From the NCBI GenBank assembly GCA_964403315.1, contig CAYOFZ010000001.1, positions 1-49,931 on the forward strand: a stretch of 49,931 nt of DNA, written 5' to 3'. Source of the DNA: an uncultured Halobacteriales archaeon. GTDB lineage: Archaea; Halobacteriota; Halobacteria; Halobacteriales; Halalkalicoccaceae. The notes under the pieces were generated by a model. It saw only the letters and a program-made list of their open reading frames with translations, did not search any database and was not told the origin of the DNA. The translations under genes were made by a program, and so were the position numbers. Of this stretch, positions 14,765-43,213 are shown piece by piece (within the stretch, counting starts at the first letter, position 1; each line of letters opens with the position of its first letter).

Positions 14765-15672
14765 GTCGCGGCGTGCTCTACATGGCCGCGGGCGACGCGT
14801 ATCTCGCCGAAGTCGAGCGGTCGGCCGCGTCGGTGCGCGGGCAGATGCCCGACACCGACATCGCGATCGCCGCGCCACCCGACGCGGACGTGCCGGGGGT
14901 CTTTGATCGACACCTCGCGCGCGAGTTCGACACCGCGACGGACGACAGCGGGCGGACGTGGCTACTCAATTCGACGATTCCGCCGGACCTGTCGCCGTTC
15001 GAGAAGACGCTGTATCTCGATAGTGACACCCACCTGTGCGCGGACGTGAGCGAACTCTGGGGCCTGCTCGAACGCGTCGACCTCGCGGCGGCGGCGACGC
15101 CCTCGCGCGCGCCGGTGGCGGGCGTACCGGAGCCGTGGTGTCTGATGAACTGTGGCGTCATCGCCTACCGCGATCGCGCGGCCACGCGGACGCTGTTGGA
15201 GCGCTGGCGAGACGGCTACCGCGCGGCGCTCGACGCGCAGGGTCGGCCGGTGGATCAACCGGCGTTCGCCCGCGCGCTCTATGGGACCGATATCCGGTGG
15301 CACGAACTCCCGCGGCGGTACAACGTCCGCGTGCCGCGAAAAGGCGTGCTCACCGCGAGGGCGAAAATCATCCACGGTCGGCACCCCGCGGCGACACTCG
15401 CCGAGATCGCCGCCGAGTTGAACGCGACCGCCCGCCCGCGAGTGTATCGCGAGCGGTCGTATCTGTCGACGCCGACGCACACCCTCGTCGCGAACGGGAC
15501 GTATCGCTACCACGTCGAACGGACGCTCGCCGAGCACGGCCTCGCGGCGACGCTCAAACGCGCACTCGGGTGTCTCGGCCGGCGCGTGTCGAATCGCGAG
15601 GTGTTCGAGCGGTGGGTGCGGCCGCCGCATCACAACCGGCCGGAACCGGGTGCGGATCGACGCGGTGGGTGA
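14761..15672 (+). CDS. putative nucleotide-sugar glycosyltransferase (GT8-like, DxD)
   Basis: 303-aa ORF. YLDSDTHL DxD motif in a Rossmann-like N-terminal half. ATGA overlap with the FkbM gene. Confidence 0.5.
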   Translation: MSRGVLYMAAGDAYLAEVERSAASVRGQMPDTDIAIAAPPDADVPGVFDRHLAREFDTATDDSGRTWLLNSTIPPDLSPFEKTLYLDSDTHLCADVSELWGLLERVDLAAAATPSRAPVAGVPEPWCLMNCGVIAYRDRAATRTLLERWRDGYRAALDAQGRPVDQPAFARALYGTDIRWHELPRRYNVRVPRKGVLTARAKIIHGRHPAATLAEIAAELNATARPRVYRERSYLSTPTHTLVANGTYRYHVERTLAEHGLAATLKRALGCLGRRVSNREVFERWVRPPHHNRPEPGADRRGG

Positions 15673-15729
15673 GGTCGTGTTTTTGGATCGGTGTGTCCGC
15701 TTTTATACCCACCGCGGCAACGCTCCCAC

Positions 15730-16446
15730 ATGGCACCCTCAGACAGCCAGCCACCCGACACCGACGACACAGCCGACTTGCGCGAGCGCGTCGCACAGCT
15801 CGAACAGACGGTCTCGAAACAGTCCGAACTGCTCAGACGCGTCATGCCCTCGCGGCGTGATTTCGTGAAAATGGGCGGCGGTGCGGCCGTCGGTGCCGCG
15901 GGCGTCTACGCGGCGACCGGCGGGGCCGCGGGGCAAACTGGCCCGGCGGGCCAGCAGGGGACCGAATCGGAGCCGAACGACATGTACGCGTGGGATCTGG
16001 ACGTCCAGAACGGCGCGACGTTTAACGGCAATCCGCTGTCAGGTGTGGGGGCGATGGATGTAGAAAAACGCATAGTTCCAGATATAACGACTGGAACAAG
16101 TGAGTTTTTTGTTGAATATAGCGACACGAGTGGATATTCAAACAGTCAAATCCAGCAAATAACTGAAGGGGTGTCAACAACAACGACCGTTATATATTCG
16201 TCGCCTCATGCTGGTGGCGGGGGCCTCTGTTTGGTGCAGGGTCGATCATCCGATGTGAGTGGGCGGTTCACCGAGTTGGTCATGTTCCATCCATTCGGTT
16301 CGGGGCCAACGGTTATCAATTCTGAGACAAGAGACACGCCAGACGGACGCACATACGCCATTGATGGTGCGGAATTAGAGCTGTCAATGGCCGCAAACAC
16401 GTATAATATCATCGCCACATCGATGGATATGCAGGCTTCAGGATAA
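15730..16446 (+). CDS. Tat-motif anchored fibre-like or adhesin-like protein with short collagen-like GXY run and an AT-richer C-terminal domain
   Basis: Start at ATG 15730. N-terminal coiled coil, SRRDFVKMGGGAAVGAAGV, then GAAGQTGPAGQQGTE. GC drops visibly from about 16060. Confidence 0.6.
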   Translation: MAPSDSQPPDTDDTADLRERVAQLEQTVSKQSELLRRVMPSRRDFVKMGGGAAVGAAGVYAATGGAAGQTGPAGQQGTESEPNDMYAWDLDVQNGATFNGNPLSGVGAMDVEKRIVPDITTGTSEFFVEYSDTSGYSNSQIQQITEGVSTTTTVIYSSPHAGGGGLCLVQGRSSDVSGRFTELVMFHPFGSGPTVINSETRDTPDGRTYAIDGAELELSMAANTYNIIATSMDMQASG

Positions 16447-16577
16447 TGACTAAAGTAATACTCAAAACCGACGATGGCGATAAGACGCTAACGATTGTCG
16501 GAGACTATCCGATTGATGATGCGATAACGGATCATGGATATGACCCCGATGTTGTGAAGTGGTCTGACGCTGAATAG
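16446..16577 (+). CDS. 43-aa acidic mini-protein coupled to the fibre-like gene
   Basis: TAATG junction. MTKVILKTDDGDKTLTIVGDYPIDDAITDHGYDPDVVKWSDAE. Same low-GC patch as the upstream C-terminal domain. Below the track length cutoff. Confidence 0.35.
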   Translation: MTKVILKTDDGDKTLTIVGDYPIDDAITDHGYDPDVVKWSDAE

Positions 16578-16611
16578 GCGCTCCGGTACTCAACAACCCC
16601 CACACACTGAC

Positions 16612-16624
16612 ACCAAAAAATAAG
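16612..16624 (-). terminator. oligo-T tract (minus strand) after the 17656-16636 operon
   Basis: The + strand reads CCAAAAAATAA, which gives T6 on the minus strand 12-20 nt past the stop at 16636. Confidence 0.3.
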
Positions 16625-16635
16625 AGACCGCGCCT

Positions 16636-17205
16636 TCAGTTCGTCTCGATCGTCAACGTGCCAGAGCCACCAACGTCGCCGTACTGGCCGGGCTCGTAGC
16701 CGTCACGCTCCACGGTGAGCGTCGGGGTATCGCTCGCCGTATCACTCGCCAGCACGTCACCGTTGGAGTTCAACACCTCGAACCGAACCTCCACGGTCAC
16801 GTCAGTTTGCAGCTCCCCGGCGACGGGGGCGAGTGCCGAGGCGTCGAGGATGCCTTCGGCGACGAGATCCACCTCGAACGTCGCGCTACCCGAGGCCTCG
16901 CCGAACAACTGCGCCGAGTCGTCGGTGGCGAGCACTTCAAGCTCGCCCGCGCCGGCGGCGAGTGCCAGCGTCACTTCGGCGGGTTGCACGCCCGACGGGA
17001 CGTCGTAGCTCCACGCCACGTCGGCGGCGAGCCACACCGCACTTACCGACCCCGTTTCGTCGAGGACGACCGAATCGTCGGCGACATCGAGTGTCGTCGA
17101 GGCCTGCGCGTCGGCGGTCGTTGCGAGGGCGTGGACGCCGGCCATGGTGAGCACGCCGCCGCCGGTCGCAGCCGCCCCACCGCGCAGCACGGTCCGGCGC
17201 TTCAT
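16636..17205 (-). CDS. Tat-signal secreted protein
   Basis: Start at MKRRTVLRGGAAATGG (ATG 17205, ATGA overlap). 189 aa, acidic and beta-rich in composition. Confidence 0.6.
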   Translation of the reverse strand: MKRRTVLRGGAAATGGGVLTMAGVHALATTADAQASTTLDVADDSVVLDETGSVSAVWLAADVAWSYDVPSGVQPAEVTLALAAGAGELEVLATDDSAQLFGEASGSATFEVDLVAEGILDASALAPVAGELQTDVTVEVRFEVLNSNGDVLASDTASDTPTLTVERDGYEPGQYGDVGGSGTLTIETN

Positions 17206-17366
17206 TGCTCGGCCTCGCGTTCGCAATCGAGACACCGGCCGTCGACGTGATACAGCACGTCGTGCCGTTCGCAGTGTTCGATTTCGTCATCCCGCAGGCC
17301 GATTTCGTCGCGCCCCGGTGGTGTCGCCATCAACTCGGTCACGTCGATTTCTCGCGGGTAGTTCAT
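17202..17366 (-). CDS. 54-aa Cys/His mini-protein
   Basis: Not in the track: MNYPREIDVTELMATPPGRDEIGLRDDEIEHCERHDVLYHVDGRCLDCEREAEQ. ATGA overlaps at both ends. Confidence 0.45.
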   Translation of the reverse strand: MNYPREIDVTELMATPPGRDEIGLRDDEIEHCERHDVLYHVDGRCLDCEREAEQ

Positions 17367-17656
17367 CGCAGCGCCTCGCGAAGGATGTCGCCGAAGGACT
17401 CCCGGTAGTGAATCGAGCGCCAGCCTCTTTTAGAATCGACGTAGCCGATCCACGCGGCGAGCCGGCGATCGGTCAGGTCCACGGTCCGTTCGATCGAGCC
17501 GTCGGCGGCGACCACCACCACGCGGTCGTCGTACGGCGAGTGGTGATGCACCGCGCCCGTGCCGTCGATCCCGAGGGTGTTCGGGCGATCGAGTGCGTCG
17601 AGTGCGTCTGTGCTGTCGTGCGGGGCTTTAATATCCCCGGCTGTCTTAGTTGACAT
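17363..17656 (-). CDS. hypothetical protein
   Basis: 97-aa acidic ORF, first gene of a three-gene coupled unit. Confidence 0.5.
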   Translation of the reverse strand: MSTKTAGDIKAPHDSTDALDALDRPNTLGIDGTGAVHHHSPYDDRVVVVAADGSIERTVDLTDRRLAAWIGYVDSKRGWRSIHYRESFGDILREALR

Positions 17657-17765
17657 TGTCTACCTTCGTAGACACCCCGCCGCGGGCGTTCCATCGCCCC
17701 CGGCATCTGTGTCAAAAGTGCCAGATAGCGGCGGGTGTGTCTATACAAATACCACGGTGTCTGAC
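17657..17765. promoter_or_regulatory. operator/promoter region with TGTCT(A/G) half-sites
   Basis: Perfect palindrome TGTCTAC-CTTC-GTAGACA at 17657-17674, abutting the ATG at 17656. Further TGTCTAT (17738) and TGTCTGA (17758). Confidence 0.4.
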
Positions 17766-17785
17766 CCCTTAACAGTTGCGTATTG

Positions 17786-18160
17786 TCATGCAGAGTTGCC
17801 GGACTCGCGCAATTCAGCGGCCACCGACGCGGCGATGAAATGTCCGCGTTCGCCCCGGTCGATTTCGACGAGGTCGCCATCGCCGAGCGCGTCGGAGTCC
17901 ACCTTCAACACGTCGCCGGATTCGAGGAGTTGGCCGAGATAGTTCGTCGCCGTTCGGCGTTCGAAGGTCGCCCCGTGGAGCTTCGCCGTCCGCCAGACGT
18001 CCACCCCGCGCATCGCCGTCCCCGACGCTTCGAGTACCGCGAGCAGCTGTGCGCGTCGATCCCGGGGAGCCATACGGCCGCTATCAGCGCCATCCTGTTT
18101 AACTTCGGCGGAGTTGTCCGATTGCTGCGATGTTATGCAATCACGCTCGTCTTTAGGCAT
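17786..18160 (-). CDS. winged-helix DNA-binding protein
   Basis: 124-aa ORF. RAQLLAVLEASGTAMRGVDVWRTAKLHGATFERRTATNYLGQLLESGDVLKV fits a wHTH. The start may be the internal MAPRD (18073). Confidence 0.55.
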   Translation of the reverse strand: MPKDERDCITSQQSDNSAEVKQDGADSGRMAPRDRRAQLLAVLEASGTAMRGVDVWRTAKLHGATFERRTATNYLGQLLESGDVLKVDSDALGDGDLVEIDRGERGHFIAASVAAELRESGNSA

Positions 18161-18253
18161 GCTTACGTGTTATTGGGCAATGTTTATAAGAACGGGCTTC
18201 GATATCGAGCGTATGCGACTCGAAACCGACGGTCGCGGCGGGTGTGGTCGAGT

Positions 18254-18442
18254 ATGACTGAGAGCGAACGCGAACGGCACGACGGCTGCGGCTGCACGAA
18301 CGGTCGGCTTGTCGGTGACGCCCCGGCGTGCAAGGAAACGCACCCGGACGGCCGACTCGTCTGTACGCGAGAGTTGGGCCACGAGGGGGCGCACGAGGCG
18401 TGTAGCCCGAGCGAACATCCGAAAGCGAGGTGGTCGGCGTGA
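18254..18442 (+). CDS. Cys/His-rich mini-protein
   Basis: 62 aa starting at ATG 18254. TATA-like TTTATAAG about 65 nt upstream. First gene of a long + polycistron. Confidence 0.45.
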   Translation: MTESERERHDGCGCTNGRLVGDAPACKETHPDGRLVCTRELGHEGAHEACSPSEHPKARWSA

Positions 18443-18741
18443 CGGACGACCCTGAACAGGGGGCGGCTGCTGCCGCTCGTCGCGCGAAACAACAGAACTG
18501 CGACATCCCGAACATCGTCAGGGCCGGACAACCGATCGGCGAGTGCCCGTCGTGTGGGCACCGCTTCGACTACAGCCGGGGCACGGATGTCCACAACCTC
18601 GACCGGTGTCCCCGATGTGGATCTGACGACTGGCACAAGTGGGGATACCGGTACAACGGCGAGGAGATCCGGCGCGACGACGCATGGGATCGCTACGACG
18701 AACCGCCATCGGTGCAGTCCGATGGGGGCGGGTCGCGATGA
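18430..18741 (+). CDS. zinc-ribbon protein
   Basis: 103-aa ORF. CPSCGH..CPRCGS. Confidence 0.55.
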   Translation: MVGVTDDPEQGAAAAARRAKQQNCDIPNIVRAGQPIGECPSCGHRFDYSRGTDVHNLDRCPRCGSDDWHKWGYRYNGEEIRRDDAWDRYDEPPSVQSDGGGSR

Positions 18742-18974
18742 GTGCTCGGTGTGAGAGCGGTGTCGAACGGCCCACGGTTCCATTTGCAATCGTGGCCGAA
18801 ACGTGGGTTGAAAAGGGCGATGGTCGGTATCAAGTCAAATACCGATACGAAGGGATGCTGAATGGCGAGCGGACGAAAGCCATCATCCCGGAAAAGTCGG
18901 GGAGGGATCGGGCCGAGGAGATCGCCGAGGACTTCGACGGTGTTCGCCTCGAATGGGGGCATTTCATTCCATGA
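18738..18974 (+). CDS. hypothetical protein
   Basis: 78 aa from ATG 18738 (ATGA overlap). Mixed-charge, globular-looking sequence. Confidence 0.5.
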   Translation: MSARCESGVERPTVPFAIVAETWVEKGDGRYQVKYRYEGMLNGERTKAIIPEKSGRDRAEEIAEDFDGVRLEWGHFIP

Positions 18975-19141
18975 ACAATACTGAGCGCATTCCCACCTGT
19001 GAGAACTGTGGCGTAAAACACCAGTGGATTCTCTCCTTGAACAGCATGGTCCGTGTTGTCAACTTCGAGTGTAACGAGTGCGGGTGGCAACAGACCCGCA
19101 CGCTAAACACGGACACCGACCGGCCGGAGGACTCGCCATGA
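18971..19141 (+). CDS. zinc-ribbon mini-protein
   Basis: 56 aa from ATG 18971 (ATGA overlap). CENCG..CNECG. Locally AT-richer. Confidence 0.5.
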   Translation: MNNTERIPTCENCGVKHQWILSLNSMVRVVNFECNECGWQQTRTLNTDTDRPEDSP

Positions 19142-19416
19142 CGGACGCATACCGCTGCGACGAGTGCGACACGTTCGGCGACGGCGACGCCCCGCTGTCG
19201 CTCTCGATGCGGATCGAGGGCGACGACGCGGGCCTGCTCGGTGGCCTGTTCGGGGTGAACGGCGGGCCGTCGGAGACCTACGACTTCTGTTCGATCGCGT
19301 GCGCAGAGTCGTTCGACTTCAATGCGGTCCGCGAGGGGCTTATCGCCGAGGTGGACGACAAACAGCAGGTGCTCGATGCCGACGTAAGTGGTGCGTCAGG
19401 GGTGGTTGAAGAATGA
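19138..19416 (+). CDS. zinc-binding hypothetical protein
   Basis: 92 aa from ATG 19138 (ATGA overlap). CDECD..CSIAC. Confidence 0.5.
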   Translation: MTDAYRCDECDTFGDGDAPLSLSMRIEGDDAGLLGGLFGVNGGPSETYDFCSIACAESFDFNAVREGLIAEVDDKQQVLDADVSGASGVVEE

Positions 19417-19664
19417 CAGAGCGCGAAACGGTTCCCGTCGCCGACATCCCGAAGCGGATGCTCGGTAACCTACTGCACGACGGCCCCGACGGCCAGTGTG
19501 CATACATGCACGCCGGGATCGAACAGCGGTGTTCGAACGCCGCCGACGCGCACACGTTTTACGAACACGGTGACGAGTACGTGCGGGTCGAAATGTGCGC
19601 CGAGCACGCCCGCGAGGACGTGCCGAGATACGACGAGTGGGAACAGGCGGTGCTATCGGAATGA
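19413..19664 (+). CDS. hypothetical Cys/His protein
   Basis: 83-aa ORF, ATGA-coupled. Confidence 0.5.
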   Translation: MTERETVPVADIPKRMLGNLLHDGPDGQCAYMHAGIEQRCSNAADAHTFYEHGDEYVRVEMCAEHAREDVPRYDEWEQAVLSE

Positions 19665-20044
19665 CTGAGACCGGCAGGGGAGACGAGTTCCCAACAGACT
19701 GGTGGCACCTTCCGATACTGTTCGGTCTCTTGGTCGGCTTCGGCTGGATATACGTGCCGAGCGCGTTCAGTCGCCGCGACTGGGGATACCTTGCCGGTGT
19801 CGTCGGCGCGTGGGCGGTGTCCATCGGCGTTTTCATCGGTCTCTGGACGATTGTCGAGCGCGGGTATGTCGATCCCGTGTTCGAGAGTATCCATCGATGG
19901 ATCGGACAGGCCGCGGCGGCGGTGCGTGCGGCCATCGAGTCGGTCGATCCGTTGGCCGCCGGGGCGCTGTTGATTGTGGTCGGCGGCGGGCTGTTCGCCT
20001 GCTCGATCGTGACCTACTATCGAGACGGTGATTCGAATGAGTGA
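19661..20044 (+). CDS. membrane protein (3-4 TM)
   Basis: 127 aa from ATG 19661 (ATGA overlap) with hydrophobic helices. Confidence 0.55.
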   Translation: MTETGRGDEFPTDWWHLPILFGLLVGFGWIYVPSAFSRRDWGYLAGVVGAWAVSIGVFIGLWTIVERGYVDPVFESIHRWIGQAAAAVRAAIESVDPLAAGALLIVVGGGLFACSIVTYYRDGDSNE

Positions 20045-20330
20045 GACCGACGCGCCTCGGTGGGCGCGGGTGTGGGAGGCCGTCGTGCCATCCAACCAGA
20101 CAATCATTACAGGCCTATTCGGAATCTGGGTACTGACTGGTGCCTTTGTGATCTGTTCGCTTCTGTTCGGCTCTATCGCCGGTGCGGTTTTACACGGTTC
20201 CACAGCGCCGGCATGGTCCTTGTCGAAAACAATCTGGGTCGGTGCCCCGATTACACTCGTCATCGCGGCGTTCGCCGCCGCGAACTGGTACGCACACACC
20301 CGCGCAAAGGACGGTGGTTCAAATGACTGA
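20037..20330 (+). CDS. membrane protein (3 TM)
   Basis: 97 aa from ATG 20037, overlapping the upstream stop. Confidence 0.55.
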   Translation: MSETDAPRWARVWEAVVPSNQTIITGLFGIWVLTGAFVICSLLFGSIAGAVLHGSTAPAWSLSKTIWVGAPITLVIAAFAAANWYAHTRAKDGGSND

Positions 20331-20907
20331 GACCGAACTCGCACTCGCCGCCGGACGCGTGGGCGACGTTTGCGACGCGATTGATGCCGAGGTCTCACCG
20401 GCCGTCCGCGACCGCGCCGAGGGATTCGCCCGCCGCGCCGACCACGAACACCCGATCAACCGCTCGCCCGGCGTGGTGGCCGCGAGTGCGGTGTATCTCG
20501 CCGCGTTGCTCGAAAACGAAAAGATAACACAACGGCCGCTCGCCGACGGCGCAGGGGTGAGCACGACCGCGATTCGAGAGTGTTATCACGAACTGTTCGA
20601 ACACGAGGGGCTCGGCGAGCAGTTCACGCTGGGAAAGCGAAGCGGGGGCGACGGAGGTGACGAACCGATCGCGGTGCTCACCACGCCGCCGGTCGTTCGC
20701 GTATGCATCGGGGTCGTGATTGCGCTTTTCGTCGGGGTGCTCGTCGCGCACCACCTCCTCGTCGAATCGGCGGGTGTGGACACCTACCGCGGGTTTGCCG
20801 AGAACGCCCCGACGGTCGTGGACCTGTGGCCGGTCGTCGCGCTGGTGGCGCTGTTGGCGCTGGCCGTTACGGCGTGGCCGTACGTGCTGGGAGGGGTCGG
20901 ACGATGA
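20323..20907 (+). CDS. single cyclin-fold TFB/TFIIB-like domain fused to C-terminal TM helices
   Basis: 194 aa from ATG 20323. NRSPGVVAASAVYLAALLENEKITQRPLADGAGVSTTAIRECYHEL matches the TFB cyclin-repeat/HTH pattern. Two C-terminal hydrophobic helices. Confidence 0.65.
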   Translation: MTETELALAAGRVGDVCDAIDAEVSPAVRDRAEGFARRADHEHPINRSPGVVAASAVYLAALLENEKITQRPLADGAGVSTTAIRECYHELFEHEGLGEQFTLGKRSGGDGGDEPIAVLTTPPVVRVCIGVVIALFVGVLVAHHLLVESAGVDTYRGFAENAPTVVDLWPVVALVALLALAVTAWPYVLGGVGR

Positions 20908-21386
20908 GCGACCAACACGGCGCAACCACGGTCGATGTTCCGATGGCGGTCGAGAAAGCATGGCACCTGATTCAATCGGAATTGCCCGTCGCTTCGTGGG
21001 CCAAGGGCGCGTCGGTACACGAATTTAGCCTGATTGATGAAACGGGCCATTTCGCCTTTTCGTTGGTTGCGGACGGACACCACGGAAGCGCGGTCATCTA
21101 CCGGACGGATGTGGCATATTCCGACGCGCTGGAGCGCGACACGCTCGATGTCTTGGAGACCGATGCTGACCGGCCAGAGGGTGCCACGATGAGCGACGAG
21201 ACCGAGCGGTGCGAAACGTGCGAAGTGCGTGATTGGGGACTCGACAGCGACGGTCAGTTGGTCCCGGTGTGGGAGAACCCCGCGGACTACACGCGGGGCG
21301 AAGGCCCCGATTATATCGGGTGCACGAACTGTGGGACCATGCGCCCGGTGGGCGAGGACGCCGACCGATCGGGAGCGGGGCCATGA
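20904..21386 (+). CDS. hypothetical protein with C-terminal zinc ribbon
   Basis: 160 aa from ATG 20904 (ATGA overlap). CETCE..CTNCG. Confidence 0.5.
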   Translation: MSDQHGATTVDVPMAVEKAWHLIQSELPVASWAKGASVHEFSLIDETGHFAFSLVADGHHGSAVIYRTDVAYSDALERDTLDVLETDADRPEGATMSDETERCETCEVRDWGLDSDGQLVPVWENPADYTRGEGPDYIGCTNCGTMRPVGEDADRSGAGP

Positions 21387-34743: not shown

Positions 34744-36550
34744 CCCCTTCCGGCTCGTCATCGTCGACCTGTTCTGTGGCGGTGGCGGGTTCTCGACCGG
34801 GATGGTTTCGGCGCTACTCGATCACTTCGATGACGTCATCTCTGCGGAGACTGGCGTCCCTCGCGAGGAGATCGAGGAACGTCACCCGGCCGTCCAGGAT
34901 TGGCTCGCCGATAACGTCCTGCTCGTCGCGGTTAACCACGATGAGCACGCAGTTGCGACCTACGAGGCGAACCACCCGTGGGCCATCGTCTACGAGGCGA
35001 AGGTGCAGAACCTCCACCCGCCCCAGGCCGTCACGGTCGAGCACGAGGGCGAGGAGATCATCGTCCGGCCGGACATCGTGATCGGCGGTCCGTCGTGCAT
35101 CCCCTGGAGCAAGGCGAACAACGGGATGGCGAAGGACAACCAGCTCCGGATGGCTCCCGATCACGTCAAGCACTGGCTCGAGCTGCTGCTCCCGAAGCAG
35201 TTCCTCCTGGAGAACGTCGAGGGGCTGCTGAAGTGGGGTCCCACAGTGTGGGAGGACGGCGAACCGCGGATGATAAAGGACGGCTCCCTATTCGAGCGGT
35301 GGGTCGGCGACCTCCGCGCGATCGGCTACACCGTCGAGTGGGACACATTCTACGCCCACGACTACGGCGACGCGCAGTCCCGGAAGCGTCTGTTCGTGAT
35401 GGGGCGACTGGACTACGAACCGCAGTGGCCGGAGCCGACGCACTCGGAAGATGGGGCCGGAGTGACCGACCCCTACCGACCGGCCGCCGACGTGATCGAC
35501 TGGACGGATCCCGGGATGAGCCTCTGGCGTCGCGATCGCGACCACCCGAACGTCCACACCACGCTGAAGTACACGACCATGCGCCGGGTTGCCGAGGGGA
35601 TTCGACGCCACTGCGCCGACGAGCTGTCCCCCTTCGCCGACGCCCTGGACCGGATCGGGCGCGTCAACCCTGAGACGGACGACGTCGACCCGGAGGCGTT
35701 CGTCGACGTGACCGAGCTGCGAGCCGACGCCGTCCCGATCGAAGAGGCGGCCGAGGCAGCAGCGGAGCGCGACGACCCGTTCCTCGTCGAAGGCCCCGCG
35801 CTCGAGGTGGGCCAGGAGGCCCTCGAAGAGCGGTACGGGCTGTGCGTCCCCTACCTCCTCGGCCAGCACGGAGGGTCGGTCGCCCGCGACGCGACCGAGA
35901 AGCCGGTCCAGTCGATCGCGACGAAAGGTTACATCAGCCTCACGACGGCGGAGCCGTTCGTCCTCCCTCGGAACGGCCGGCAGCGAGACGAGTTCAGCAA
36001 CGGTACTCGCGACCCGGAGGAGCGGCCGCTTCACACGGTCACCGCTCACAACCACGATGGCTGGCTCGTGAGTCCGTACCTCGTCCCCTTCTACGGTGAA
36101 CGAGAGAACCAGTCCCCGCGGACGCACGACGTCGAGGAGCCGCTCCCGAACGTCCCGGCATCGGCCATCAAACAGGCCGCCGTATCGCCGTACCTCGTCG
36201 TCTACAACGGCGCTTCGAACTGCGCGGACATCGAGGCACCGATGCCGACGGCCACCGCGACGGATCGCCTCGCGCTGGTCGTCCCGGAGGCGTTTCCCTG
36301 GGGCCTCGACCTGCGGTTCCGGCTGCTGAAGCCCAGCGAACTCGCGATGGCCCAGGGCTTCCCTCCGGACTACGAGTTTGTCACCGACACCAAACGCCAG
36401 CACACGAAGTTGATCGGGAACGCTGTGCCGGTCAATCTGGCGGAGTCGATGTGCCGGACGCTCCTAGAGCCGACGGATACTCCGACGCTGAACAACTTCG
36501 GCGATGGGCCGCGACCGGCGGCCGAAGGGGTGGTCTCGGACGATGACTGA
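34736..36550 (+). CDS. dcm: DNA (cytosine-5) methyltransferase
   Basis: 604 aa from ATG 34736. Motif I DLFCGGGGFS, PC motif GGPSCIPWS, ENV, QSRKRLFV, GNAVP. Long variable region. Confidence 0.9.
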   Translation: MTDPFRLVIVDLFCGGGGFSTGMVSALLDHFDDVISAETGVPREEIEERHPAVQDWLADNVLLVAVNHDEHAVATYEANHPWAIVYEAKVQNLHPPQAVTVEHEGEEIIVRPDIVIGGPSCIPWSKANNGMAKDNQLRMAPDHVKHWLELLLPKQFLLENVEGLLKWGPTVWEDGEPRMIKDGSLFERWVGDLRAIGYTVEWDTFYAHDYGDAQSRKRLFVMGRLDYEPQWPEPTHSEDGAGVTDPYRPAADVIDWTDPGMSLWRRDRDHPNVHTTLKYTTMRRVAEGIRRHCADELSPFADALDRIGRVNPETDDVDPEAFVDVTELRADAVPIEEAAEAAAERDDPFLVEGPALEVGQEALEERYGLCVPYLLGQHGGSVARDATEKPVQSIATKGYISLTTAEPFVLPRNGRQRDEFSNGTRDPEERPLHTVTAHNHDGWLVSPYLVPFYGERENQSPRTHDVEEPLPNVPASAIKQAAVSPYLVVYNGASNCADIEAPMPTATATDRLALVVPEAFPWGLDLRFRLLKPSELAMAQGFPPDYEFVTDTKRQHTKLIGNAVPVNLAESMCRTLLEPTDTPTLNNFGDGPRPAAEGVVSDDD

Positions 36551-37481
36551 CGGAGATGTCGGATTGGACGAGCTCGAAACACTCAATGAGAAGAGTGAAG
36601 ACGAACTCTCAGATGCAGAGGTCACGAGTAAAATCAAGCTCTCGGTAAAACGGCGGTTCGATTACCCAATGTGGTTGATGGTGTTTGAGTTCCAGAATCG
36701 AGACGGCAAGCGAGCGGATTGTCTGGCGTTCAACACCGCTGCGTCCCGCAACTTCAAACTCGTGGGTTATGAGTTCAAGGCGAGTCGGAGTGATTGGCTC
36801 TCTGAGAAAAAAGATCCGGAGAAATCGGACTACTTCATCGAGCTCTGTGATGAGTGGTACGTCGTGGCAGGACGTCGTGGGATCGTCCAGGAATCCGAAT
36901 TACCCGACGGGTGGGGGTTATTGGAACTGAAACCCAGTGGGCAACTTTACAAACTCGTAGAGTCCGATCTCGACGACGATCTACAGAACGTGGTGCCGGA
37001 TCGCCGATTCTACGCGAAATTTATGAAAAAAGCAGTCGGTAATAGTTCCAACTTCGACCAGCAAGACCTCCGCGAAGCCAAACGACGAGGGTATGATGAA
37101 GCAATGGACGAAGCCGTTGAGGAGCATCTCGACTACGAGACGGAGAAATTGAATAAGAAGGCCGAGAGTTTCGATAAGATCAGGGATAGTGAGCTCCACC
37201 TCCGTCCCCCGGTGAGTGACGATCGGGTTGCGAGGTTGAAGAAGGCGGAAACGTTGATACAGTCGGTCGAGTCGGACGGCTTCTCCAGTCTTCGTGGAAA
37301 CATCGACAGGTTACATACGACGTTTGAATCCACGCTCGAATCCTTCGCGCGAGATGTCGATCAACTGCATGGCCTGATGGACGAACTTCAAGTTGAACTA
37401 GATGACGTCGCTGCTACCGGAGATGATCCATCAACAGGAAAGGGAGATGGACAACCAGACGAGGGTGATGCAGACCGATGA
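36543..37481 (+). CDS. MmcB-like PD-(D/E)xK nuclease domain fused to a coiled-coil tail
   Basis: 312 aa from ATG 36543 (overlaps the dcm 3' end by 8 nt; its ATG lies 2 nt upstream of the dcm TGA). ADCLAF..LVGYEFKASRSDW..YFIELCDEWYVV..LPDGWGLLEL. AT-richer than dcm. Confidence 0.6.
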   Translation: MTDGDVGLDELETLNEKSEDELSDAEVTSKIKLSVKRRFDYPMWLMVFEFQNRDGKRADCLAFNTAASRNFKLVGYEFKASRSDWLSEKKDPEKSDYFIELCDEWYVVAGRRGIVQESELPDGWGLLELKPSGQLYKLVESDLDDDLQNVVPDRRFYAKFMKKAVGNSSNFDQQDLREAKRRGYDEAMDEAVEEHLDYETEKLNKKAESFDKIRDSELHLRPPVSDDRVARLKKAETLIQSVESDGFSSLRGNIDRLHTTFESTLESFARDVDQLHGLMDELQVELDDVAATGDDPSTGKGDGQPDEGDADR

Positions 37482-38242
37482 GCGCCGACAGCACAGTGCA
37501 GGTTGACGATGATTGCGTGGAAGAGGATCTCGTCGAAGAACTCATCGTACAGACCAATCGTCTGGAAGAGCACGTCGACGACCTCACCGACCAGCTTGAG
37601 ATCGCCGAAAACCGAATCGCCGACCTCGAAAAAGAAACCCAGTCGCAGTCGGCGTTGATCGACGCGCTTCGCACCCAGAACGAACACCTCAAAACCGTGC
37701 TCGCCGGGGGTCCCGATGAATTCTCGACTTGGGAGACCGACGACATGGTGCCGATGCACGCGCGGTTGTTGAACGTCGAAGACGGCCTGGAGGATCACGA
37801 GGACAAACTGCGAATGATGGTCGTCGACGACGGTCAGAAAGGCAGCCCTGACGAACGCGCCATACACCTTCGGCAAGTCCTGTACAACGAAGGGAAACAG
37901 GTCTACAAAGAGCAGGACCACGACGGGTCGATCGAAGCGCGGCTTTCGCGTGATCGGTGTAAAACCGCGCTCGGATCGACCGTAAACCGTGGGACAGTGT
38001 TGGACGCCATGAAACGCGCTGCTGACGGTCGTGACGCGTCCGAATCAGAGGCCGTCGCGTATACGCCAATCCAGGGCGCGAGTACGTTAGAGCCGATGGA
38101 CGCGATCTCGTTCCATACCGGTGCGTCCGTGAACAACGCCGGTGACACCGAACAGAGCCACATCTCGATTCGGCTGGACAGTCTAACGCTGGGAGACTTC
38201 CGTAAGAATCTAACGACGGTGACGGACGAGGAGGGGGCCTAA
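37478..38242 (+). CDS. coiled-coil acidic protein
   Basis: 254-aa ORF. Heptad-like N-terminal 80 aa. ATGA-coupled. Confidence 0.55.
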   Translation: MSADSTVQVDDDCVEEDLVEELIVQTNRLEEHVDDLTDQLEIAENRIADLEKETQSQSALIDALRTQNEHLKTVLAGGPDEFSTWETDDMVPMHARLLNVEDGLEDHEDKLRMMVVDDGQKGSPDERAIHLRQVLYNEGKQVYKEQDHDGSIEARLSRDRCKTALGSTVNRGTVLDAMKRAADGRDASESEAVAYTPIQGASTLEPMDAISFHTGASVNNAGDTEQSHISIRLDSLTLGDFRKNLTTVTDEEGA

Positions 38243-38906
38243 GCATGCCCACGAACCGTGGAGGAAAACCACCACCGTTGTACTAGAGTAAATTAATTTT
38301 GCAGTAGCGGTATGAAACTACGTTTCATTAGTTGTATCTACGATTTCAAGAGCGGCGCGCGAGCGGTTGAAGCACGCCCGAAAAAATCTTACACACTCTT
38401 CCCCACCGTCGTTAGAATCTTACAGTAGTGGTAAGGGATTTGAGATAACCGACGAGAGAACGTATTAAAACGGCGTATGAGCATAATGGCAAGCTAGTTA
38501 GTGAGGACGAATATCTTACTGACATCTTGGACCCCAGTGTTGATCGAGACACCCAGTCTTTTGTATACCCCGAAGAGTACCTCACCGAACTCCGGAAACT
38601 CCTCGATAATGTTATCTTAACTTATTTGAGAGCTATATCAAATGATCACTCCATATCTGAGTTAATTTAGGAGTTAGATAGCACACTACGAGATGCACCA
38701 TTCAACTTAGAGGAATCGTAAGAAAAATGCTAATTCTCTGCAAGTTTAATATGTGGGTTGGATTAGGGAAAATAACAACTACATTTTCTACATATAGGAT
38801 GTATAAATAAATTGAATTTGCAACAACTGATAAGGAACGCCAATTCTGATGCTGCCTCAAGCCTGCCAGTCCACCGGCGAATCACCTGACAGAGAGTAAC
38901 GATTGA

Positions 38907-40838
38907 CTACTGGTCGTCGATATCGATGTCGTGTTTCTCGTAGATCTCCTTGATACGTTCATTTACTTCAATGTGACTGTTTTCCTGCCATTCGTGAAGC
39001 GAGTGAAGTTGTTCGATAATCATCTTCCGGGTGACGTGCTCCCGTTCTTCGTCTTCTGACATGCGCTCGAGACATTCCTCCAGGGCGTCTACGACCACGA
39101 GGACTACCTCTGGATACCGGTCCATCACAGTTCGACCGAGGACCCCGAGATCATAATAGCCCTTCAACACGTCGTTTTCCACCGCGAGAACGGCACTGTC
39201 GCAAAAGAGTTCCGCCAATCCAACACCGAAGTCCTCCACTTCATCCGGGTCCATGATTTCAATGATATCACCAAGGCCGATCGGCCAGAAGAAGGACACC
39301 TCCACGCCGTGTTCTACGGCATTGTCGTGAATCCGTTTTTGCCTACGGAGCGTGCTATTGGCAAAGAAGTTACTGAAAGGTTCAACCTTTTCGTCCAGCG
39401 CCTTTTGCACGAATTCCGTACAGATTTGTAGTGCTGTTCGAACAGGCCGCTCAAATCCTCTCTCCGCCGCTGCCTCGGCGTAGTCCTCTAGGAACGAAAG
39501 CCGGTCTGTGAACATATCCCGGCTTGACATAAACCACATCCGCTCATCGTGTTCTTCATCGGAAAGTTCATCCATCCCCTTGTACGCGTCATCAAGCACG
39601 ATGTGCTTCTTCTTACGGGGAACACTGGCGAGTTCAGTCTCAGCAACCTCCTGTAGTGCATCGTCGTAGGATTGAAACACAGACTCGTACTCATTCTCGA
39701 CAATATCCATCCCGATTTTGTCAAAATGGGTTACGACTTCGTTCCTCCAGCCGGCTTCTCGCATCTCAATCAACTGTATCACGACGTTCGAGATGTTGGC
39801 GATGTAGGCGTTCAGAAACTCGACGCTGTCTGTATTCAAGATCTCTTGGTAGATCTGCCGCTGCAGATGGAGAAAATAGCTGCTGATGGCTTCTGCTTCA
39901 TTATCTGATAGAGTTGGATCTGTTTGCTCTTTCCGCTCCTGGATCTTTTCTAAGTACGTGATTTCCTTGCCGAACAGGAGACCCATCAATTCGCCGAACA
40001 GGTAGATATCGTTTTCCCGGACGGTTCGGATGATGATTTTCTGGATGTCCACATACCGGTCTCGTTGATCTGTCCCGCGAATCCGTCCCTGTCGATACTT
40101 CTGCACGATCTCTCTGGGAAAGTCGTCCGGAATACTCTCCTCTATGATGTCGAGCTGGCTTCCCGGCTGCAGCCGGCGAATCAGGTTGTACAGGTAGGCA
40201 ACGAGATAGAGCAGACACCATACCAGTGCGAGGAACGAATACAGGAGAAAAGACCCGACCCGGTCGGCAAAGAACGAGAGCACGGCAACGTTAGCGGCGA
40301 TAGATAGCACGTACGAGGCGAGGAGGAGTTTGATAAAGGTTGATTGGAGCACCGATTTTGCGATTCGCGGTGTGAGCCGTCGCGAGTAGTATTCAAGACC
40401 CAGCAGTGTGAGGGAGATGGTGATTGCGAAGATTGTGGCCAAGATCTGGGCGTTCGTCCGCAGCACCTGCTCCGGCGATTCCAGTTCGCTGGCAAAGACA
40501 CCGGGAAAGACGACTCCTGCCACCATTATCAGGAGCAAACCGAGACCGCCGAATGCCAAAATACGGTGTTCGATGTGGAATTGAGGGACATACCACCGGA
40601 TGGTATAGTATCGCTCCAGCACTTGGTCAGCAAGCCACCCGTGGTTCTCGACGCTGTTACCGAGAAACGCGAGGAAAAAACCGGAAAGCATTAATAGACC
40701 TCCGATTTCGGCGGTCCACGGCCACTTAGTGAATTCCACGTATCGACTTAGGTCTTCGACTATGAGCAGAAACCCGATCAAGACTGAAGACACGGCAGAG
40801 ATTACTAACTTTCCATGCAACGAAATCCGCGGAAACAT
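38907..40838 (-). CDS. 643-aa membrane protein: about 6 N-terminal TM helices (DUF2254-like) plus a large acidic helical cytoplasmic domain
   Basis: Uninterrupted ORF in AT-rich DNA. NAQILATIFAITISLTLLGLEYYSRRLTPRI resembles the DUF2254 core as I recall it. The family call is tentative. Confidence 0.8.
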   Translation of the reverse strand: MFPRISLHGKLVISAVSSVLIGFLLIVEDLSRYVEFTKWPWTAEIGGLLMLSGFFLAFLGNSVENHGWLADQVLERYYTIRWYVPQFHIEHRILAFGGLGLLLIMVAGVVFPGVFASELESPEQVLRTNAQILATIFAITISLTLLGLEYYSRRLTPRIAKSVLQSTFIKLLLASYVLSIAANVAVLSFFADRVGSFLLYSFLALVWCLLYLVAYLYNLIRRLQPGSQLDIIEESIPDDFPREIVQKYRQGRIRGTDQRDRYVDIQKIIIRTVRENDIYLFGELMGLLFGKEITYLEKIQERKEQTDPTLSDNEAEAISSYFLHLQRQIYQEILNTDSVEFLNAYIANISNVVIQLIEMREAGWRNEVVTHFDKIGMDIVENEYESVFQSYDDALQEVAETELASVPRKKKHIVLDDAYKGMDELSDEEHDERMWFMSSRDMFTDRLSFLEDYAEAAAERGFERPVRTALQICTEFVQKALDEKVEPFSNFFANSTLRRQKRIHDNAVEHGVEVSFFWPIGLGDIIEIMDPDEVEDFGVGLAELFCDSAVLAVENDVLKGYYDLGVLGRTVMDRYPEVVLVVVDALEECLERMSEDEEREHVTRKMIIEQLHSLHEWQENSHIEVNERIKEIYEKHDIDIDDQ

Positions 40839-41185
40839 GCCTGTTAGCGATCCAATTTAAACCCGGAACGGTAAAACCTAACTGTCTATAATTGATTCTC
40901 TATGTTCAGCACCGAGTTTCGGTTATATCACTATGATAACCAAATCAATTAGCCCATTATTTCCCTTTTCCCATAATGAAATTTTACTCATCCCCATTCT
41001 CGGGGCACAAGACTGGGCGGACCATATATCACCATACGGTTTATCACATTGGATATGAAACTGACCGCAGGTAGCGGTCGTGTACCCGACGATTTCGAAG
41101 GATTTGTAGCCTCGCGCGTGGGGCAACCTTCATCAACCCACCCTGCACGGATCGACGATTCTTGAAGCGGGATCGGTCTGTGCAC

Positions 41186-41213
41186 TATCCCAGTAACCCA
41201 TGTTTACGGGATA
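41186..41213. promoter_or_regulatory. imperfect 28-bp palindrome, candidate recombinase or regulator site
   Basis: TATCCCAGTAACCCATGTTTACGGGATA. Followed by two ATTAGGACT direct repeats (41218 and 41242) before the AbrB-like start. Confidence 0.35.
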
Positions 41214-41259
41214 GTCTTATTAGGACTGAAACCATACCTGTAATTAGGACTAATCAGGA

Positions 41260-41415
41260 ATGACCCAAACGAGCGTCAATCTCGGCAAGAACAACCAGTA
41301 CAAAACGACCATCCCGAAAGACATCGGCGACATGTTTGAGCTCGATGGGAAGAAACTCGAATGGCGTCGCGGGTCGGCCCGGAACAAACTCGAAGTGGAG
41401 ATAGTCGACGAATGA
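41260..41415 (+). CDS. AbrB/SpoVT-like mini-protein
   Basis: 51 aa, not in the track: MTQTSVNLGKNNQYKTTIPKDIGDMFELDGKKLEWRRGSARNKLEVEIVDE. ATGA overlap with the recombinase start. Confidence 0.6.
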   Translation: MTQTSVNLGKNNQYKTTIPKDIGDMFELDGKKLEWRRGSARNKLEVEIVDE

Positions 41416-42083
41416 CTGCACTTGGATACACCCGCCTTTCGCAGGATTCGGATACGAGCATCGATCGCCAAAAACGACACATCCGCGAGTACGCCACCGA
41501 GCACGGATTCGACCTCGAACGGATTTACGACGACGGTGAGCAATCCTCAGGGTGGGACAGCAGCCGGGGTGAGTATCAAGAACTCCGTCGGCGGATCGTC
41601 GACGACGAAAGCGTTCAGCAGCTCCTCCTCAACGACAAGCGTCGAATCGCCCGCGACATCGACGAGGTAATGCGGTTGGTGCCGGACCTTCGGCAACACG
41701 ACGTCGAACTCCACACACATCAGGACGGCCGGCTGGACCTATCCGACCCGATGCGGGCAGCGATCGAGATTTTACAGGCGGCCGCGGCACACAAAGAGAA
41801 GCTGGAGGAAATCAAGAAAAGCATCGAAGCCGTCGAAGAACGTCTCGAAGCCGGGTACGATCACGGCCGGGCACGCTTCGGGATGGAGTATGGGCCGGAC
41901 GGCCGGTATCAACAACCGGGCGACGATTTCGAGAAGGTTCTGGCGGTGTTGAAGCATCGAGATAACGGACTCACCTACTCCGAAATCGAATCGGAGACCG
42001 GCGTCCCGAGATCGACGGCGAACCGAGTGGTCCTGAAACGAGAATGGTACGAAGAGCGGGCGAAAACGGAGATTGAAACATGA
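41412..42083 (+). CDS. small serine recombinase (resolvase/invertase family)
   Basis: Start at MTALGYTRLSQDSDTSIDRQ (catalytic Ser region). C-terminal HTH GLTYSEIESETGVPRSTANRVV. 223 aa. Confidence 0.85.
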   Translation: MTALGYTRLSQDSDTSIDRQKRHIREYATEHGFDLERIYDDGEQSSGWDSSRGEYQELRRRIVDDESVQQLLLNDKRRIARDIDEVMRLVPDLRQHDVELHTHQDGRLDLSDPMRAAIEILQAAAAHKEKLEEIKKSIEAVEERLEAGYDHGRARFGMEYGPDGRYQQPGDDFEKVLAVLKHRDNGLTYSEIESETGVPRSTANRVVLKREWYEERAKTEIET

Positions 42084-42310
42084 ACTCCGAAAGTTCAGAT
42101 AGCAAACCCCCGTCCGAACTGTCGGACGGGGACCTTCTCGAAGCCATCCACGAAGCGTACCGAGAGACATTCCAATTGGACGATCAGGCGGATCGGTTAA
42201 CGGCCTTCAACCACTTTCACGATTTGCGAAAAGAGGCCGCTGACCGTGGCTTGCGGTCTGATGCGAGCGAAGTCACCGAACAAGTTCGGCAAGAGGAGAT
42301 CGAAACATGA
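42080..42310 (+). CDS. acidic hypothetical protein
   Basis: 76-aa ORF. Ends ..EEIET with the same junction (GAGATYGAAACATGAAC) as the recombinase gene. Confidence 0.5.
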   Translation: MNSESSDSKPPSELSDGDLLEAIHEAYRETFQLDDQADRLTAFNHFHDLRKEAADRGLRSDASEVTEQVRQEEIET

Positions 42311-42642
42311 ACGTCAAAACACTCCGTCGCCGGGTCGCCCTGTGGCTGCTCCCCGGAACCGGTGAACAGGAATTGAAAGCGCGCTTTCGACTCGCCGAAC
42401 GCGGTATGATGGGACTGCCCCGGTCGGACGTGAGGCTCGAAGGCAAGCAGCAGTTGGTCTCGCTCCAACGACTGCTCGGCATCGACCCGGCCCAAGTCCC
42501 CGAACCGTACAACGTCGATCCCGACGAGTTTGAATACGTCCCCGTACCGAACGCACCGGACATCGATTGGCAAGCACACCTCGATCGGCATGAGGAAACG
42601 TGGGCACCGCTATACGACGACGAAGAGGAGGTCGAACCATGA
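42307..42642 (+). CDS. hypothetical protein
   Basis: 111-aa ORF, ATGA-coupled. Confidence 0.5.
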   Translation: MNVKTLRRRVALWLLPGTGEQELKARFRLAERGMMGLPRSDVRLEGKQQLVSLQRLLGIDPAQVPEPYNVDPDEFEYVPVPNAPDIDWQAHLDRHEETWAPLYDDEEEVEP

Positions 42643-42932
42643 AATCCAGACCGTTCATCGAGTGGAGTCCGGTCTATACACTGCTCCTCGGTCTTGCGGT
42701 CGGGTTGCTACTCGGCACGGCAATCACGGCCGCGGGCGCAACTGAAGACACCGAACAGCCGTCTGTGAGTTGCACGACCTTCATCGACGAAGCGGGCGAC
42801 GCCAGCGGGATGTGCTTTGTCTACGGCGACGTAGAGTTCGAGTGGCTCGATGAGCAGAACGCCACGAGTGACGAGCTGTCGCTTGCGGGGCTGCCAGCCG
42901 AGAACAGCACGGTACGGAGAAAAGGGGCATGA
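42639..42932 (+). CDS. single-TM or signal-anchored protein
   Basis: 97 aa from ATG 42639. VYTLLLGLAVGLLLGTAITAAGA. Confidence 0.5.
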   Translation: MKSRPFIEWSPVYTLLLGLAVGLLLGTAITAAGATEDTEQPSVSCTTFIDEAGDASGMCFVYGDVEFEWLDEQNATSDELSLAGLPAENSTVRRKGA

Positions 42933-43213
42933 CACAGACAACCGACGAACAGGAACTCGAAGCGTTGCGAGAGATGGCAATCGACGCTGGTGACCGGGCG
43001 GTGTTTCCCGAGGATCGGGAGACGCGCGGCGTTTACACCGACGAGGAGTGTATCATTTTCGAGGATGCACCGCGGAAACTCTCATGTTGGCTGTTCGGTC
43101 ACAAAACCGACCGCGATCCGACGCTCGATCCCGAGACAAAAACGATCATCGGCGAGTCAACGTGGTGCCGGCGCTGCGGGGAAGTACTGAAACACGACCT
43201 CAACGGCGAGTGA
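42929..43213 (+). CDS. hypothetical protein
   Basis: 94-aa acidic ORF. CRRCG. Confidence 0.5.
   Translation: MTQTTDEQELEALREMAIDAGDRAVFPEDRETRGVYTDEECIIFEDAPRKLSCWLFGHKTDRDPTLDPETKTIIGESTWCRRCGEVLKHDLNGE

Follow-up and report, generated by a model that had tools for sequence, protein, structure and literature searches.

The stretch of DNA analyzed here, termed the window, is a complete contig (CAYOFZ010000001.1) of 49,931 bp from a haloarchaeal metagenome-assembled genome (MAG) of 2.1 Mb, which is 77% complete. Within it, the stretch of low GC (guanine plus cytosine) content at positions 38243-41259, referred to below as the island, carries a single intact gene, which encodes a membrane protein of 643 amino acids (aa) and lies next to the operon of a small serine recombinase. 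In our interpretation, to which we assign a probability of about 0.6, the island is a patchwork of acquired DNA at the boundary between two transcription units, and its intact gene belongs to a unit that moves as a single gene, not by means of the recombinase. Four parts make up the mosaic of the island: a repeat element, the remnant of a gene, the gene unit itself and 288 bp of unplaced DNA (Table 1).

In terms of composition, the island (3017 bp) is the lowest-GC stretch of the contig, with a GC content of 0.485 versus a contig mean of 0.62. When all segments of 3017 bp were scanned, the lowest value (0.484) was found in the segment starting at 38251. Segments outside the island averaged 0.637 ± 0.020, with a minimum of 0.599, and the island departs from them at z = -7.8. 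A previous reading of the letters alone (the sequence-only reading) had described an abrupt switch from GC-rich to AT-rich DNA at 38243, and back at about 41260, and these borders proved accurate. The membrane protein gene itself has a GC content at third codon positions (GC3) of 0.63, compared to 0.77 ± 0.07 for the open reading frames (ORFs) of the contig that encode at least 100 aa. All nine genes around the island (36504-43213), including the gene of an MmcB-like nuclease, a resident 254-aa gene, the recombinase operon and four small genes, have GC3 values of 0.60-0.72, below the contig mean of 0.77. The sharp GC trough thus sits within a broader, compositionally distinct accessory region.

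The evidence for movement as a single gene comes from the comparison of the gene unit with its relatives. Over ∼2.0-2.07 kb it shares 82-89% nucleotide identity with five other contexts (loci L001 of N. jeotgali, L055, L056/57 and L058). The homology reaches ∼42-58 nt upstream of the ATG; at the other end, its limit varies between a point slightly inside the stop codon (L058) and ∼77 nt past it. The more divergent L060 (71% identity) matches within the ORF only. The flanks of the unit show no similarity between contexts, at least six of which are unrelated, and the same is true of a pair of relatives from Halorubrum and a JGI contig (L003 and L004). Since the synonymous divergence (dS) between contexts is only 0.3-0.7, homologous non-coding flanks would still be detectable, and the contexts are therefore truly different. 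Moreover, the break-points of the homology vary by 5-20 nt between pairs. This points to illegitimate recombination and selective retention of the functional unit, as opposed to a site-specific mechanism.

The unit is self-contained. Its upstream piece contains two A/T-rich, TATA-like boxes (TTTTAC at -38 and TTTAAAT at -23 from the ATG), consistent with an archaeal promoter of its own and a very short leader. When the 3′ region was considered as a terminator or structured RNA, it folded no better than shuffled sequences. The gene is of low GC content in every host (0.46-0.53), and the ratio of non-synonymous to synonymous divergence (dN/dS) is 0.10-0.22 overall; it is functional everywhere and under purifying selection.

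A second, earlier piece of cargo is represented by the dead gene remnant, which is 75-81% identical at the nucleotide level to the 3′ end of an intact 501-aa gene of another haloarchaeon (genome G141, L069 264-1769). The remnant is interrupted by a CAG-to-TAG change, such that an in-frame TAG at 38668-38670 precedes the original stop codon at 38719-38721. An open frame of 73 codons at 38449-38670 had been suspected of being a gene remnant in the sequence-only reading, and this frame indeed matches the 3′ end of the 501-aa gene up to the new TAG. The parent gene is likewise a low-GC single-gene patch (0.47, versus 0.62 in its flank) and belongs to a rare, unnamed orphan family of seven clusters, for which no Pfam or PADLOC match was found. 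The C-terminal helices of the 501-aa protein carry an R-x4-H motif (RGKLVH) reminiscent of that of HEPN proteins, and both residues are altered in the remnant (NGKLVS). At least two separate acquisitions are thus visible in the island.

The left edge of the island belongs to the resident DNA. The inverted-repeat arms at this edge are 26 nt long, 88% complementary and spaced by 182 nt; they are unique in the window, and no comparable match was obtained in shuffled sequences. The same architecture was observed behind all three of the distant homologues of the 254-aa gene that were examined, with the left arm falling within the final codons (3′ end) of the gene and the right one 177-196 nt downstream. 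A long-range stem of 19 pairs is retained through compensatory changes, and the fold has a z-score of -3.06. This presence in relatives places 38243-38429 in the backbone and not among the foreign DNA, despite its low GC content. For the same reason, the 26-nt inverted repeat was rejected as a candidate insertion scar or att site. The element may act as a structure at the 3′ end of an RNA, provide two binding sites for a protein, or work as a small invertible switch.

In the four assemblies (L018 10509-10762, L063 1895-2134, L064 8592-8814 and 38196-38429 of the window), the arms measure 22-36 nt and share a dyad core of the form CGTnAGAnTCTnACG. The element has the same orientation in all four, while the genes downstream differ in every locus. 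Homologues of the 254-aa gene, with 36-43% aa identity, occur on IMG/VR viral contigs, in a Haloferacaceae MAG and on a Haloarcula chromosome; these loci have no other gene of the window in common.

Within the repeat element, a micro-ORF follows the stop codon of the 254-aa gene. Its PPP motif is retained in relatives (L018 ∼10567-10608, L063 ∼1945 and L064 ∼8634), in which the proline codons are synonymously different and TGATG or ATGA overlaps with the 254-aa stop are observed. The predicted peptides with the conserved polyproline are MPTNRGGKPPPLY, MPSHGVGKPPPLH, MRRSRGKPPPP.. and ..WIPPPF... Another possibility is that the CCACCNCC run forms an anti-Shine-Dalgarno-like hairpin with the upstream GGAGGGGG.

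The sizes given previously for the flanks of the membrane protein gene (660 and 420 bp) agree with those measured (664 and 421 bp), but the description of both as plain non-coding DNA does not apply to the left one, which comprises the resident element and the pseudogene. On the right, the 288 bp between the gene unit and the recombinase control region matched nothing in the same genome, in 400 Halobacteria genomes or in Rfam, and contained no convincing ORF; Rfam likewise gave no match over the entire range 38000-41500.

Table 1. Features in and around the low-GC island of the window.
Feature	Position	Strand	Remarks
254-aa acidic coiled-coil gene	37478-38242	+	Resident; last gene of a long plus-strand operon; left flank of the insert
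Inverted-repeat element	38196-38429	+	Resident, conserved; GC 0.46; arms at 38196-38221 and 38404-38429
Micro-ORF	38246-38287	+	13 codons (MPTNRGGKPPPLY); next to the stop of the 254-aa gene, inside the repeat element
Dead gene remnant	38453-38829	+	3′ end of an unrelated low-GC orphan gene: ∼92 last codons and ∼108 nt of downstream DNA
Single-gene unit	38830-40896	-	∼2.07 kb: ∼58 nt upstream, the ORF and ∼77 nt of 3′ sequence
Membrane protein gene	38907-40838	-	643 aa; intact; only intact gene of the island
Unplaced AT-rich DNA	40897-41184		288 bp; GC 0.48; between the gene unit and the recombinase control region
Control region	41185-41259	+	30-bp palindrome at 41185-41214 (CTATCCCAGTAACCCATGTTTACGGGATAG); two ATTAGGACT repeats, at 41219 and 41243
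51-aa gene	41260-41415	+	Resident; ATGA overlap, translational coupling to the recombinase
Small serine recombinase gene	41412-42083	+	223 aa; likely start ATG 41412; ORF open from 41361

The right border is formed by the recombinase operon. As had been proposed from the sequence, the larger gene product is a small serine recombinase, with a Resolvase domain (PF00239, E = 8.5e-19), a C-terminal helix-turn-helix domain, a match to the PHROG family 'DNA invertase' (5e-20) and a weak match to the NCBIfam Mpi invertases. The label 'AbrB-like' given to the preceding 51-aa ORF could not be sustained, as no Pfam, NCBIfam or PHROG match was obtained. The gene is nevertheless real, for a 49%-identical homologue occupies the same position in another genome: the pair of genes recurs in a genome of the Halorubrum group (G018:C9), with 49% and 54% aa identity for the 51-aa protein and the recombinase, respectively, and a GC content of 0.62-0.71. 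In the control region, the ATTAGGACT repeats occur twice versus 0.05 expected, and three similar repeats of the TAGACCT/AGGACT type lie upstream of the homologous operon (L054 1690-1790). The palindrome and the repeats are probably operator or res-type sites.

The sequence-only reading had suggested that the adjacent recombinase delivered or inverted the cargo, and one may extend this to its excision. The adjacency of the two, the invertase matches and the 26-nt inverted repeat at the left edge of the island all speak for such a role. However, the inverted repeat is the resident element, which is present in relatives that have no recombinase nearby, and the palindrome proximal to the recombinase occurs only once in the window. 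No pair of repeats brackets the insert, since those that span the island are only 12-15 nt long, at chance level. Moreover, the Halorubrum-group pair lacks the insert, no serine recombinase accompanies the homologues of the membrane protein gene in the other contexts examined, and the break-points of the gene unit vary. Delivery by the recombinase is therefore highly improbable. Plasmid resolvases of multimer-resolution systems need a single site per replicon, and the recombinase is more likely the multimer resolvase of this replicon, with the single palindrome as its presumed site.

The membrane protein gene is present and intact, as a single large minus-strand gene, exactly where the sequence-only reading had placed it. 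Hydropathy analysis of its product revealed six hydrophobic segments (residues 5-31, 41-63, 89-121, 128-151, 163-192 and 192-221), and an AlphaFold2 model built from an alignment of 11 sequences (pLDDT 79.5, pTM 0.71) agrees in showing six transmembrane (TM) helices followed by an all-helical domain. The latter (residues 225-643, ∼420 aa) is acidic, with an isoelectric point of 4.5 and 22% Asp plus Glu. The six N-terminal helices and the acidic helical domain that had been read from the translation are thus both present. By loop charges and the positive-inside rule, the N-terminus, the basic loop 150-166 (YYSRRLTPRIAKS) and the C-terminal domain would all be cytoplasmic. The protein can be divided into a core of the DUF2254 type (∼89-305) and an acidic cytoplasmic α-solenoid (∼306-643). 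The most conserved part of the family is the fourth TM helix together with its cytoplasmic continuation, TNAQILATIFAITISLTLLGLEYYSRRLTPRI; for a membrane helix, it contains unusually many invariant polar residues (N129, Q131, T135, S142, T144 and E149).

The resemblance of the N-terminal segment to DUF2254, which had also been proposed, was substantiated by a Pfam match above the gathering cut-off (E = 3.7e-10, 39.6 bits versus 28.8), confined to the membrane part: residues 102-240 align with profile positions 21-167 of 368, whereas positions 168-368, corresponding to the canonical C-terminal domain, remain unaligned. The polytopic topology of the protein agrees with that of DUF2254, and PF10011 was also matched by 68 of the 74 relatives found via profile search. 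The similarity to PF10011 (IPR018723, 'Predicted membrane protein (DUF2254)') covers the membrane core together with the first helices proximal to the membrane. In contrast, an α-solenoid of 340 aa here replaces the canonical C-terminal domain, two extra TM helices are present at the N-terminus, and the full architecture is limited to about 40 clusters, mostly archaeal. The literature found on DUF2254 concerns only predicted knots in its models (PMC11184937).

Structural comparison of the C-terminal domain using Foldseek retrieved only generic α-solenoids, i.e., designed repeat proteins, karyopherins and the retromer subunit VPS35, at TM-scores of up to 0.28. The full model retrieved nothing but generic helical repeats from the PDB and nothing specific from the viral models of BFVD, the family profile matched no sequence in the PDB, and residues 1-310 modelled alone (a weak model, pLDDT 64) yielded no fold match at E < 0.3. 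Inspection of the broad alignment, both its consensus and its conserved columns, revealed no catalytic-type motif, and the protein matched no PHROG or NCBIfam family; a weak match to NCBIfam PgsC (E = 0.009, 16 bits versus a cut-off of 96) was dismissed as noise.

The family is small. Among 5.8 billion clustered proteins, close relatives were restricted to ten other clusters, with 37-88% identity and lengths of ∼630-650 aa; all are haloarchaeal where named, and two homologues are labelled 'DUF2254 family protein' by NCBI. A homologue search with the broad alignment recovered nothing beyond this close family. An exhaustive profile search of 1.84 billion representatives returned 144 matches, of which ∼35-40 cover positions ∼90-635 and the rest the membrane module only. 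The long-form matches, typically 540-620 aa and without the first two helices, are mostly archaeal, and many are lysine-rich and thus derived from low-GC organisms. The named carriers of the long form are MAGs of Methanoperedens, Methanoregula and Thermococci, the last with a decayed copy. In the class of the Methanoperedens genome (G424), the membrane module was found in 68 of 301 genomes but the long form in only one. The membrane module is thus common, while its fusion to the solenoid is a rare and patchily distributed branch. The full-length gene was detected in 3 of the 401 Halobacteria genomes sampled, with one more copy cut by a contig end, and no match was found in the plasmid, phage or IMG/VR collections. 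Together with the extreme composition, the pseudogene remnant and the six or more unrelated contexts, this patchy distribution upholds the earlier view of the island as foreign accessory cargo.

The neighborhoods of the homologues vary in content. In Halorubrum sp. CSM-61 (L003), an AlbA_2/Schlafen-like gene (8394-9758, 454 aa) is adjacent, and a cluster of the HmaB/HmaC/PglZ type lies 3 kb away. This cluster (14887-21156), located in a low-GC region, encodes a DUF499 ATPase, a short PglZ protein and a DUF1156 methylase, which correspond to the PADLOC models HmaC, PglZ and HmaB/PglX, and it looks like a BREX/Hma-like defence cluster. In Methanoperedens, a nucleotidyltransferase of the toxin-antitoxin type is adjacent, with a PDC-S01 ATPase and IS66 nearby. 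The N. jeotgali copy has an insertion sequence (IS), an integrase fragment and an RHH/ParE pair in its vicinity, and the JGI contig carries Orc1/Cdc6, TFB and HerA-like genes. The distant Methanoregula member is chromosomal, beside a cobalamin operon, a YhcG nuclease and TBP. The window, in turn, has a C5 methyltransferase and the MmcB-like nuclease nearby. No neighbor is conserved, which implies that the protein acts alone or with host factors. Such neighborhoods agree with an accessory gene that belongs to the mobile gene pool and are compatible with a function in conflicts; several of them make a defence or exclusion role plausible.

The contig itself is treated here as a plasmid- or virus-like extrachromosomal element of a haloarchaeon. 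The nearest relatives of its HerA/DUF87 ATPase (51-58% aa identity) reside on haloarchaeal plasmids of 34-180 kb, and the contig also encodes the C5 DNA methyltransferase, the MmcB-like nuclease and long runs of small genes. Its predicted proteins are acidic. At a distance from the island, a CRISPR array of eight repeats (12686-13182, type I-B-like) is found beside a TnpB gene (10836-12146, minus strand), and the cassette of the two (10742-13891) is bracketed by a 50-nt direct repeat (10742-10791 and 13842-13891, 86%).

Taken together, the island would have arisen as follows. The long plus-strand operon, closed by the conserved inverted-repeat element, forms one side of the transcription-unit boundary, and the resident operon of the 51-aa gene and the recombinase the other. 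A low-GC orphan gene would have been acquired here at an earlier time, leaving only its dead 3′ end. In a separate event, the 2.07-kb piece of promoter, gene and 3′ end would have been taken up; it is still intact and evolves under purifying selection. As a lone gene, this unit travels among the chromosomes and mobile elements of haloarchaea, with illegitimate recombination as the most likely mechanism. As to function, we tentatively consider the protein as a lone, membrane-anchored sensor-effector in conflicts between hosts and mobile elements, a role that is possible rather than probable. A protein from an incoming or competing element would be the ligand of the solenoid, and the conserved polar TM helix would then change membrane permeability or block entry. 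An even more specific version, which we regard as doubtful, is that of a one-polypeptide archaeal exclusion or abortive-infection determinant, in which a DUF2254-type membrane module would be the effector, fused without an NTPase switch to a cytoplasmic α-solenoid that would sense a protein of an invading virus or plasmid, and the gene spreads as a bare unit.

Several points weigh against this explanation. It is from the composition and the homology of the mosaic parts that the insertion is deduced, rather than from comparing occupied and empty sites: no insert-free sibling replicon was found in the DNA of 60 relatives, in plasmids or phages, or in scans of viral, metagenome and genome collections guided by the 254-aa protein. 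Concerning the function, the protein matched no PADLOC family at E ≤ 0.1 and hence no known defence family. Neighbors of the defence or toxin-antitoxin type occur in 3-4 of the ∼7 readable contexts, too few for enrichment statistics, and the Methanoregula neighborhood is not a defence island. The solenoid shows no sign of diversifying selection (dN/dS 0.09-0.19). Finally, the proposed membrane-permeability mechanism is wholly an inference, and no fold relative of the protein was found.

About as likely as a role in conflicts is an accessory membrane function outside defence, whereby the protein would serve as a scaffold, a regulator or a transport-related component that confers an envelope benefit on the host or the element and has no link to conflicts with viruses or plasmids. 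The wide occurrence of the DUF2254 membrane module in ordinary chromosomal genes (the 68 of 301 genomes mentioned above) and the position of the Methanoregula homologue beside housekeeping genes are in line with such a function, as are the purifying selection, the absence of a PADLOC match and a solenoid devoid of any effector-like domain. It is less easily reconciled with the very patchy occurrence in Halobacteria or with the haloarchaeal contexts, which are always low in GC, variable or mobile, and in which toxin-antitoxin, IS, BREX/Hma-like or replication genes are near; nor does any conserved partner or operon suggest a pathway. An improbable alternative, although not quite to the extent of delivery by the recombinase, is that the protein forms part of the membrane machinery of the element itself, i.e., its envelope, vesicle or transfer apparatus. 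The contig does encode many membrane proteins, and its HerA/DUF87 ATPase occurs on haloarchaeal plasmids as well, but related plasmids with the same ATPase lack the membrane protein gene. Furthermore, the gene is foreign in composition and transcribed opposite to both neighboring operons, and its homologues reside in chromosomes and unrelated contigs without the other genes of the element.

That a haloarchaeal mobile element carries accessory cargo of low GC content is nothing unusual in itself. The AT-rich islands of haloarchaeal genomes are low in GC and enriched in IS elements and acquired genes. Like them, the island is a patch of low GC content within a GC-rich replicon, is mosaic in its make-up, contains a pseudogene remnant and has mobile-element neighbors, and the homologues of its gene likewise reside in low-GC patches; it differs in being very small (∼2.75 kb), extrachromosomal and without an IS element. 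The gene unit is also comparable to the 'morons' of phages and plasmids, the single-gene cassettes, in that it has a promoter region and 3′ end of its own, lies between transcription units, deviates in composition and recurs in unrelated genomes. In contrast to morons, the elements here are archaeal, no terminator hairpin was detectable, and the unit occurs in chromosomes as well. Membrane proteins that act in superinfection exclusion or abortive infection include RexB of phage lambda, Imm of T4, SieA of P22 and the transmembrane effectors of CBASS. The likeness to these is one of working principle only, in that they too are borne by mobile elements as stand-alone polytopic proteins in accessory regions. 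No relation in sequence or fold was found, and the 643-aa protein is far larger, with a domain of helical repeats in the cytoplasm.

What is newly resolved is the rare solenoid branch of the DUF2254 family, its occurrence as a bare single-gene unit in at least six contexts, and the stacking of cargo, partly decayed, behind a conserved repeat element. At nucleotide resolution, the locus documents the build-up and decay of cargo where two transcription units of a haloarchaeal element meet. A rare archaeal branch that exchanges the DUF2254 C-terminal domain for helical repeats and travels alone offers a compact and easily cloned test case for the membrane module. Should the protein turn out to act in exclusion or defence, archaeal immunity, of which few systems have been catalogued so far, would gain a new one made up of a single gene. 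If the one-polypeptide exclusion or abortive-infection determinant were real, it would be the first archaeal example of its kind and would provide the first function for the large DUF2254 family.

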